Assembly (NCBI GenBank): GCA_051294905.1
Contig: CM119376.1
Coordinates: forward strand, 992,001 to 1,056,000
DNA length: 64,000 bases
Origin: Botryllus schlosseri
Lineage: Eukaryota
Direction of reading: 5' to 3'
The notes below the pieces were generated by a model, which searched no databases, was not told the DNA's origin, and was given only the letters and a program-made list of their open reading frames with translations. Position 1 is the stretch's first letter. Each line of letters starts with the position of its first letter. This document shows, piece after piece, positions 8,370-8,678 of the stretch. The translations under genes and the position numbers were made by a program.

Positions 8370-8655
8370 CATATAATCATGATCTGGAGTTCAACTTAAA
8401 TCGCGCGAATGGCAAAATAATGTTAAGTTGAATAATTTGTCAAAAATGATCATGTGGATATATCACATAGACATTTCAACGATTTTGGTGTCTAATCACA
8501 TCCATTGACCGACTTGAGCTTAACTCAAAGGTACTTCACCATAACCTAAATATAAAACCCATGGTACGGGCCGCACGCCCTTCAATTGGCACTACTTCAC
8601 GCGACAGTCAGTATTTCTTGTTTTTGGGTCGCAGGTGTACGGTAAGAGAATAATT

Positions 8656-8678
8656 GGAACTAGTGCAGTATATGCCCG
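8656..8678 (+). repeat. Left terminal inverted repeat of the giant element
   Basis: GG start, preceded by TSD GAATAATT. Confidence 0.85.

Follow-up and report, generated by a model that had tools for sequence, protein, structure and literature searches.

A 40-kb element of Botryllus schlosseri with Merlin-type ends, putative envelope genes and an integrase-less gag-pol module

In a 64,000-nt stretch of the Botryllus schlosseri genome (assembly GCA_051294905.1, contig CM119376.1, positions 992,001 to 1,056,000; hereafter the window, in which all coordinates below are counted), an env module and a gag-pol module lie towards the two ends of an interval of roughly 40 kb that is bounded by a direct and an inverted repeat. 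Is this interval a single insertion, and if so, by what means could its reverse-transcribing part have entered the chromosome? To our knowledge, LTR-group elements integrate by an integrase or a tyrosine recombinase, and caulimo- and hepadnaviruses do not integrate actively.

Ends of the interval

The candidate ends comprise the following features.

8648 to 8655, unstranded: left 8-bp target-site duplication (TSD) GAATAATT, identical to 48635-48642
8656 to 8678, plus strand: left terminal inverted repeat (TIR), Merlin-type, GG start, 17/23 to the right TIR
48480 to 48502, minus strand: candidate TIR-like copy in subterminal position (132 nt in from the right end), matching each TIR at 15/23; a lead only
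48612 to 48634, minus strand: right TIR, Merlin-type, GG start, 17/23 to the left TIR
48635 to 48642, unstranded: right 8-bp TSD GAATAATT, identical to 8648-8655

As the first-pass annotation had claimed, the TSD is perfect (8/8 at a distance of about 40 kb) and the 23-bp TIRs are imperfect, matching ungapped at 17/23 positions with GG first and an inner TGCCCG common to both; their likeness ends past base 23. The element between these ends measures 39,979 bp. As a bare pattern, an 8-mer repeat with a 17/23 TIR and no GG rule is only modestly rare: 4 of the 49,136 identical-8-mer pairs in the window show an inverted-repeat match of at least 17/23, and 16 of 200 block shuffles gave at least one pair at 17/23 or better. 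The other three pairs start with CAG, TAG or GCAG types and look as though they bound other TIR elements of the flanks. Under the Merlin rule of GG at both ends, in contrast, the pair 8648/48642 ranks first of 75 with an 8-bp repeat (the runner-up reaches 12/23), and it was equalled in only 2 of 1,500 shuffles. No third TIR copy was found in the window, the next best candidate agreeing with the 17 shared positions at 13. As positive controls for this end scan we used the nested hAT-like elements of the left flank.

The Merlin superfamily is defined by TIRs of 24 to 462 bp with terminal GG, a TSD of 8 or 9 bp and a DDE_Tnp_IS1595 transposase; imperfect TIRs occur, and families with TIRs of 23 to 29 bp are on record (PMC8101967). 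The bacterial IS1595-family relatives make AT-rich 8-bp duplications (PMC12561309, PMC7835479). Here we find 23-bp TIRs with GG at both ends and a 17/23 match, a TSD identical at 8/8 positions, and two DDE_Tnp_IS1595 genes with D-D-E motifs. The element thus resembles Merlin and IS1595-IS1016 in its GG-terminal TIRs of about 23 bp, its AT-rich 8-bp duplication and its type of transposase (PMC8101967, PMC12561309, PMC7835479). Unlike the Merlin elements in the available text of PMC8101967, none of which is described with such features, it has 40 kb, two transposases, a full gag-pol, env genes, a primer-binding site (PBS) and a polypurine tract (PPT); in place of a single transposase gene between the TIRs there are 2 transposases and 19 other ORFs. 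Judged by these sequence hallmarks, the ends are of Merlin/IS1595 type, and the element as a whole falls outside the Merlin superfamily definition.

All 21 annotated ORFs in the interval lie on the minus strand, where they cover 23,775 of the 39,979 nt. The purine fraction of this sense strand is 0.53 to 0.58 across the element, compared with 0.51 at 34.0-40.3 kb and 0.49 in both flanks. Binned at 200 nt, the skew changes stepwise at both TIRs; the change-points obtained by fitting are loosely placed (2998-8678 on the left, 48778-49238 on the right) and support the element ends only coarsely. With ends that follow the Merlin definition, two Merlin transposases inside, co-oriented ORFs and a purine-rich sense strand everywhere except 34.0-40.3 kb, the earlier proposal that env, spacer and gag-pol form a single insertion holds up, and one Merlin-made insertion very probably spans the interval 8656-48634. 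That the repeat pair might instead be a product of chance or of an assembly join, with host DNA separating env and gag-pol blocks that were inserted independently, we regard as highly improbable. The shuffles run without the GG rule, the resemblance of the 34-40 kb core to host DNA and the failure of the skew change-points to pin the ends exactly would suit such a history, whereas the scarcity of GG-ended pairs in shuffles, the position of the pair directly beside pol and transposase, the lack of separate ends around either block and the lack of any N gap inside the element speak against it.

Two further readings of the ends fared less well. The unmutated TSD had been taken to indicate a recent insertion; because 8/8 identity allows up to about 31% divergence, it dates the event little, and an old host MITE lies inside the element. 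The open ORFs suggest youth or selection, and the eroded nested MITEs suggest an old lineage. The asymmetry of the TIRs had been read as a functional difference between left and right ends; unequal TIRs are frequent and normal in Merlin, and nothing but the 15/23 copy at 48502-48480 hints at such a difference.

The surroundings are rich in other mobile sequences. On the right, a pogo/Tigger-like DNA transposon (49011-55962; TIRs 27/27; DDE_1 ORF 49900-51573) is interrupted by a hAT-like element at 51561-55090 with a 23/23 TIR and an 8-bp duplication, and 56940-57523 is taken up by a palindromic MITE-like element whose 127-nt arms are 94% complementary. The left flank holds nested hAT-like non-autonomous elements with 8-bp duplications (5365-7228, 5772-6489 and 7410-about 8390). 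Copies of another MITE family are common to both flanks (4084-4279 and 58480-59979), and two copies of a SINE-like head, tRNA-derived as judged by eye, lie at 52205-52285 and 61522-61602. A 137-nt N gap preceded by a duplicated microsatellite (1094-1230) is outside the element. Just before the left duplication, 8618-8655 contains by eye an acceptor-like splice site, a 7-nt exon and a donor, which may place the insertion within a host intron.

Genes between the ends

Read from the right end, the order is transposase A, env1, env2, a 10-kb spacer, 15 accessory ORFs, ORF0, gag and pol.

47396 to 48379, minus strand: Merlin transposase A, 327 open codons, D-D-E motifs; open frame without ATG at its 5' end
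44750 to 47266, minus strand: env1, 838 aa, putative class I fusion-type glycoprotein; homologue P0058 at 62%
41264 to 44662, minus strand: env2, 1132 aa, putative attachment-type glycoprotein with N-terminal domain, S/T-rich stalk and C-terminal TM
31000 to 41263, unstranded: spacer without long ORFs; core 34.0-40.3 kb of host-like composition, remainder with the strand skew of the element
29519 to 30154, unstranded: nested host hAT-like MITE, 74% to the flank copy 5772-6489, without clean duplication
23987-24541, 25742-26308, 27744-28604, 28790-29302 and 30421-30918, minus strand: orphan ORFs
24606-25655, minus strand: LRR protein
22971 to 23918, minus strand: Merlin transposase B, ATG-started, D-D-E motifs; PF12762 E=2e-17, NF033547 above cut-off
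22058 to 22750, minus strand: orphan ORF, paralogue of 25742-26308
20123 to 21817, minus strand: intronless inhibitor of apoptosis (IAP), 3 BIR and RING
18484-19008, minus strand: orphan ORF
17967-18422, minus strand: E2 ubiquitin-conjugating enzyme
16758-17207, 17371-17829, 19120-19515 and 19521-19976, minus strand: four paralogous orphan ORFs of ~150 aa
15302 to 15571, minus strand: ORF0, 89-aa membrane peptide between PBS and gag
12477 to 15293, minus strand: gag, 938 aa, with a capsid-like middle part and a CCHC knuckle (zf-CCHC at E=5e-4, narrowly under the cut-off)
12453 to 12498, minus strand: -1 frameshift signal, slippery heptamer 12498-12492 and hairpin, joining gag to pol
8929 to 12546, minus strand: pol, 1205 codons open, protease (DTG), RT (YIDD), RNase H and Tpt1/KptA, from Pfam, NCBIfam, motifs and PDB Tpt1 alignments
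8769 to 8774, minus strand: AATAAA, possible poly(A) signal, 155 nt after the pol stop and 118 nt before the left end

The two transposases are 38% identical to each other. Transposase A lies 255 nt from the right end of the element, and five of its six matches are relatives at 56-75%. No open ATG exon for it was found within the right end; a splice acceptor as its start is plausible but weak, with the likeness to P0059 extending upstream of the acceptor. One strong splice donor in gag is noted as a lead only. No smaller GG/8-bp pair surrounds either transposase in the window scan, and separate small Merlin elements around them were rejected on that ground. These data also bear on the idea that a pararetrovirus or retroelement fragment was caught once, by chance, between Merlin ends and never formed a lasting partnership, which seems to us quite improbable. 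The transposases could stem from separate captures at their level of identity, and only one copy of the element is seen. Against a chance capture, pol ends 273 nt from one TIR while the PPT and transposase A start within 255 nt of the other, the 21 ORFs share strand as well as skew, and neither transposase is bracketed by internal Merlin ends.

Env1 has the class I feature list of furin site, fusion peptide, heptad helices and C-terminal TM: a hydrophobic N-terminus is followed by a furin site at 482-485, a hydrophobic peptide at 486-504, long helices and a TM at 778-796. It may be a fusion protein, as this anatomy and weak Atlas look-alikes (0.89-0.90, low recognition) suggest. No Pfam match or informative PDB sequence match was obtained for env1. 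The N-terminal domain of env2, a mucin-stalk glycoprotein, is paralogous to env1 (E=2e-8). The env models are of low confidence (pLDDT 35 and 59) and gave no viral Foldseek match under E=1.

The accessory block contains three small paralogue families. None of 14 proteins matched PHROGs, and Rfam gave no matches. Eight of the 15 accessory ORFs have their own TATA, where about 3 are expected. AATAAA occurs 40 times on the sense strand and is not depleted, sense versus antisense counts being 16 versus 13 in the accessory block and 15 versus 7 in the spacer. At 16000-16260 (minus), a short protein-like frame follows a TATA motif shared with 16720 and is by eye possibly a decayed accessory gene. 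The spacer core at 34.0-40.3 kb carries MITE- and SINE-like pieces, and a nested-element search of the spacer gave no clean TIR and TSD pair. Between 34757 and 40255 there are repeated GACTCGAGTC-rich arms and CAGTGTTGGG starts, along with one hAT-like end (37718-37800) and one SINE-like end that carries a poly(A) tail (37160-37195). In its native form the element may measure about 33 kb.

The gag product has Atlas look-alikes of the retrotransposon-gag type (0.92, a lead) and is 63% identical over 94 aa to XP_039272285.1 of the ascidian Styela clava, the one relative with a name. The hairpin of the frameshift signal has a z of -3.38 and was equally stable in 1 of 200 shuffles. A 135-nt tandem duplication (11474-11733) in the long protease-RT linker keeps the frame. 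The best solved-structure match of the RT is 8r0s, which we take to be cauliflower mosaic virus, followed by Ty3. Pfam and NCBIfam reveal no integrase in pol, which ends in Tpt1/KptA instead, and no tyrosine recombinase was found among the 21 ORFs in the Pfam scan. We know of no clear job for Tpt1 in animals. The domain aligns with solved Tpt1 enzymes (PDB), including the RH, R and R positions of the Arg-His-Arg-Arg tetrad (PMC6182162), which are also kept in relatives; by this criterion it is a predicted Tpt1/KptA enzyme. Some Tpt1s cap 5'-phosphate DNA or RNA ends (PMC6182162).

This pol is not alone. Among 43 pol matches, 2 share RT-RH-Tpt1 and have no integrase tags, and the other 41 carry them. 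A domain scan of 30 pol relatives, hand-picked from three match sets (one with at least 150 matches listed), detected Tpt1 in 10, all of them devoid of rve, and rve in 2, both devoid of Tpt1. The pols of the integrase-less lineage are 36-46% identical. In a quick RT-RH tree of 146 rows, from which fragments and nine near-identical cluster members had been removed, the eight lineage rows form one clade (SH-aLRT 98), long-branched among Ty3-like matches; with its long branches and without named caulimovirus or Metaviridae references, this tree leaves the placement of the clade unsure. The cluster of one relative has 31 members, several of the 15 listed being on contigs of 0.2-1.5 Mb; as near-identical full-length members lie on several long contigs, integrase-less copies do multiply. 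The missing integrase therefore looks like a lineage trait and not damage, and the integrase-less RT-RH-Tpt1 protein appears from these comparisons to define a distinct clade. In P0066 and P0214 an ExoIII-type domain follows Tpt1 in pol, and in P0082 a dUTPase precedes it. Among P0214, P0066, P0082 and P0073, pol ending directly after RNase H also occurs.

Priming sites and a possible circle

Two sites at which reverse transcription might be primed were located.

15601 to 15619, minus strand: PBS, 19 nt, complementary to the 3' end of tRNA-Ile(AAT) including CCA; exact match to the tRNA in PMC13439101
48410 to 48423, minus strand: PPT, 14 nt, containing the 13-nt MuLV PPT exactly, 211 nt inside the right end

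Both are additions to the first-pass annotation, as are the missing integrase and the Merlin identity of the ends. From the PBS it is 30 nt to ORF0 and about 310 nt to gag. The PPT, compared with the MuLV sequence in PMC3407194, is the only long purine tract ending in G6 and occurs just once in the window, both strands counted; in a post hoc shuffle test, the exact MuLV match arose in 3 of 2,000 shuffles and a looser pattern in 145 of 2,000. We found no LTR-like or long direct repeat in the element, no LTR before the PBS, and no R region or promoter. A 75-82 bp repeat at 15872/17252 was rejected as an LTR or R region, for it tracks duplicated accessory genes. Nor was a near-repeat of 35 bp that links the PPT region with pol accepted as a central PPT: it is at about chance level, and relatives do not conserve it.

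In the linear copy the PPT lies 32.8 kb upstream of the PBS and is thus useless for LTR-type replication. When the ends are joined in silico, it comes to lie 484 nt behind the pol stop, which is the normal place for a PPT, with the TIR junction between the two and transposase and env behind. With the joined order PBS-gag-pol-[junction]-PPT-transposase-env, the insertion looks like a permuted circle. From the anatomy observed at this locus we infer a circle, a genome-length RNA, particles, and roles for Tpt1 and for the two transposases: an enveloped caulimovirus-style reverse-transcribing element that replicates through a circle and relies for integration on a Merlin DDE transposase of its own instead of an integrase, a mechanism to which we give an even chance. 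The transposase would excise the element and its ends would join to give the circle PBS-gag-pol-[TIR junction]-PPT-transposase-env1-env2-spacer-accessory genes, from which a promoter upstream of the PBS would drive a terminally redundant RNA round the circle. RT would use tRNA-Ile and the PPT for priming, and its second jump, made at the PBS, would yield a gapped circle and not a two-LTR linear DNA. Tpt1 (ExoIII or dUTPase in relatives) might help to process or protect the ends at the gap. The transposase would then cut at the abutted TIRs and insert the circle with an 8-bp duplication, leaving a permuted provirus. Particles would be built from Gag and Env, and IAP, E2 and LRR proteins might act on the host.

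The geometry of PBS and PPT is what one circle opened at the TIR junction would give. The Merlin signature at the ends, too, counts in favor of a circle handled by a transposase, as do the exact PBS, the MuLV-identical PPT, the missing LTR, the integrase-less lineage and the RT match to 8r0s ahead of Ty3. Teratorn offers a precedent for a virus adopting a transposase (PMC5601938). Several observations weigh on the other side. A single copy was seen; linkage of transposase, env and RT-RH-Tpt1 pol was observed in no other genome, and the GTDB pattern scans with pol and transposase A recovered no loci (0 relatives among 79 and 77 pattern matches). Nor did any transposase or env match lie on a contig equal in length to a pol contig. 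An RNA of 33-40 kb would be at or above the largest retroelements, for which Burro at >30 kb and Terminons at up to 40 kb set the size records (PMC6431247). The undepleted sense AATAAA, one of them between pol and the left end, and the TATA motifs are awkward for one genome-length transcript. The lack of an identified R region or promoter, the post hoc nature of the PPT test, transposase A without an open start and the env fold without structural confirmation likewise count against the circle. As to Merlin itself, excised circles are not established and the bacterial hints are thin in the available text of PMC12561309 and PMC7835479.

Conceivably, the locus is instead a giant cut-and-paste Merlin element that stably carries an integrase-less retro module along with other cargo, so that the whole unit moves as DNA. 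RT would then copy at most shorter or spliced RNA, or Gag and Env would merely ferry the element between cells. Such an element would have all of the Merlin end features, would need no 33-40 kb transcript, and would fit internal TATA and poly(A) signals that resemble those of a DNA element with separate genes, as well as old host MITEs in the spacer that show a long stay as chromosomal DNA. It would, however, leave unexplained why a perfect PBS, a frameshift signal and an intact RT/RNase H were retained, why the PPT is correctly placed only across the joined ends, and why an integrase-less pol lineage has persisted long enough to diverge to 36-46% identity. On balance, we consider it rather unlikely.

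Known systems and implications

The closest parallels are to be sought among several groups. In caulimoviruses, terminally redundant RNA is copied from a circle, and priming by tRNA and internal polypurine sites gives a gapped circle with no integration step (PMC7660458). The element resembles Caulimoviridae in having PR-RT-RNase H and no integrase, no LTR, a tRNA PBS with an internal PPT and a gag zinc knuckle (PMC7660458); circle-based replication would be a further likeness under the proposed model, which takes it from the PBS/PPT geometry. It differs in its animal host, envelope genes, 4-5x size, tRNA-Ile primer and encoded integration system, and no movement protein was found in it. Compared with the non-enveloped plant viruses of 7.1-9.8 kb with a tRNA-Met primer that make up this family, an element of 40 kb with two glycoproteins and tRNA-Ile stands outside. 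Teratorn, a fusion of piggyBac and an alloherpesvirus, is likewise a virus made integrative by a TIR DNA transposon and has accessory cellular homologues (PMC5601938), whereas the partner here is reverse-transcribing and the transposase is Merlin; neither a piggyBac transposase nor alloherpesvirus core genes are found inside the element.

Gag, a -1 frameshift, PR-RT-RH, PBS, PPT and a fusion-type env are shared with env-bearing Ty3/Gypsy elements, lokiretroviruses, Odin, Kuafuor/Troyka and Burro, the last of which, at more than 30 kb, likewise encodes BIR and ubiquitin-related domains (PMC6431247). All of these have LTRs and an integrase (PMC11673190, PMC9040795, PMC6431247), and the element has neither. 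The rotifer Terminons, Penelope-like giants that can reach 40 kb and carry many accessory ORFs (PMC6431247), belong to another RT class, attach to telomeres and have ribozyme ends, with no TIR or transposase-made duplication. Set beside LTR elements, Retroviridae, loki, Odin and Kuafuor as groups, the element has gag, PR-RT-RH, PBS and PPT and lacks LTRs and integrase; its RT motif is YIDD, as opposed to I/V/LADD in Kuafuor.

DIRS elements have a tyrosine recombinase, no protease, and an RT-RNase H without DDE integrase, their circle being integrated by a borrowed enzyme. The present element has the same RT-RNase H without DDE integrase; it differs in lacking a tyrosine recombinase and in possessing a DTG protease motif, a PBS, env and an 8-bp duplication. 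Among the listings of full-text literature searches and in passages of PMC5718144 and PMC11089739, we found no element that combines RT with a Merlin transposase, although subscription papers, Repbase reports or supplements could hold one; within the same scope, no Tpt1 in a retroelement is described. For the architecture of the 40-kb element, no earlier description was found in the literature searched.

Tentatively, and with a little less confidence than we place in the mechanism, we suggest that the element represents a 'temperate pararetrovirus', that is, a new class of enveloped animal reverse-transcribing virus with a circular genome of 33-40 kb, two glycoproteins and host-control genes like those of DNA viruses. 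It would be excised and integrated in the manner of a prophage by the Merlin transposase at a TIR junction between pol and PPT, with Tpt1 replacing the integrase, and in the form of the RT-RH-Tpt1 clade it would likely be spread among ascidians and other animals.

If true, this would give reverse-transcribing elements a novel route into chromosomes, by means of a borrowed DNA-transposon enzyme. It would close a gap that separates retrotransposons, pararetroviruses and DNA transposons, raise the known upper size for reverse transcription, and suggest for Tpt1 a role in cDNA processing that can be tested. Even the weaker reading leaves a 40-kb Merlin element with a complete retro module aboard. 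As such an element would escape both LTR finders and TIR finders, a family could hide in many assemblies.
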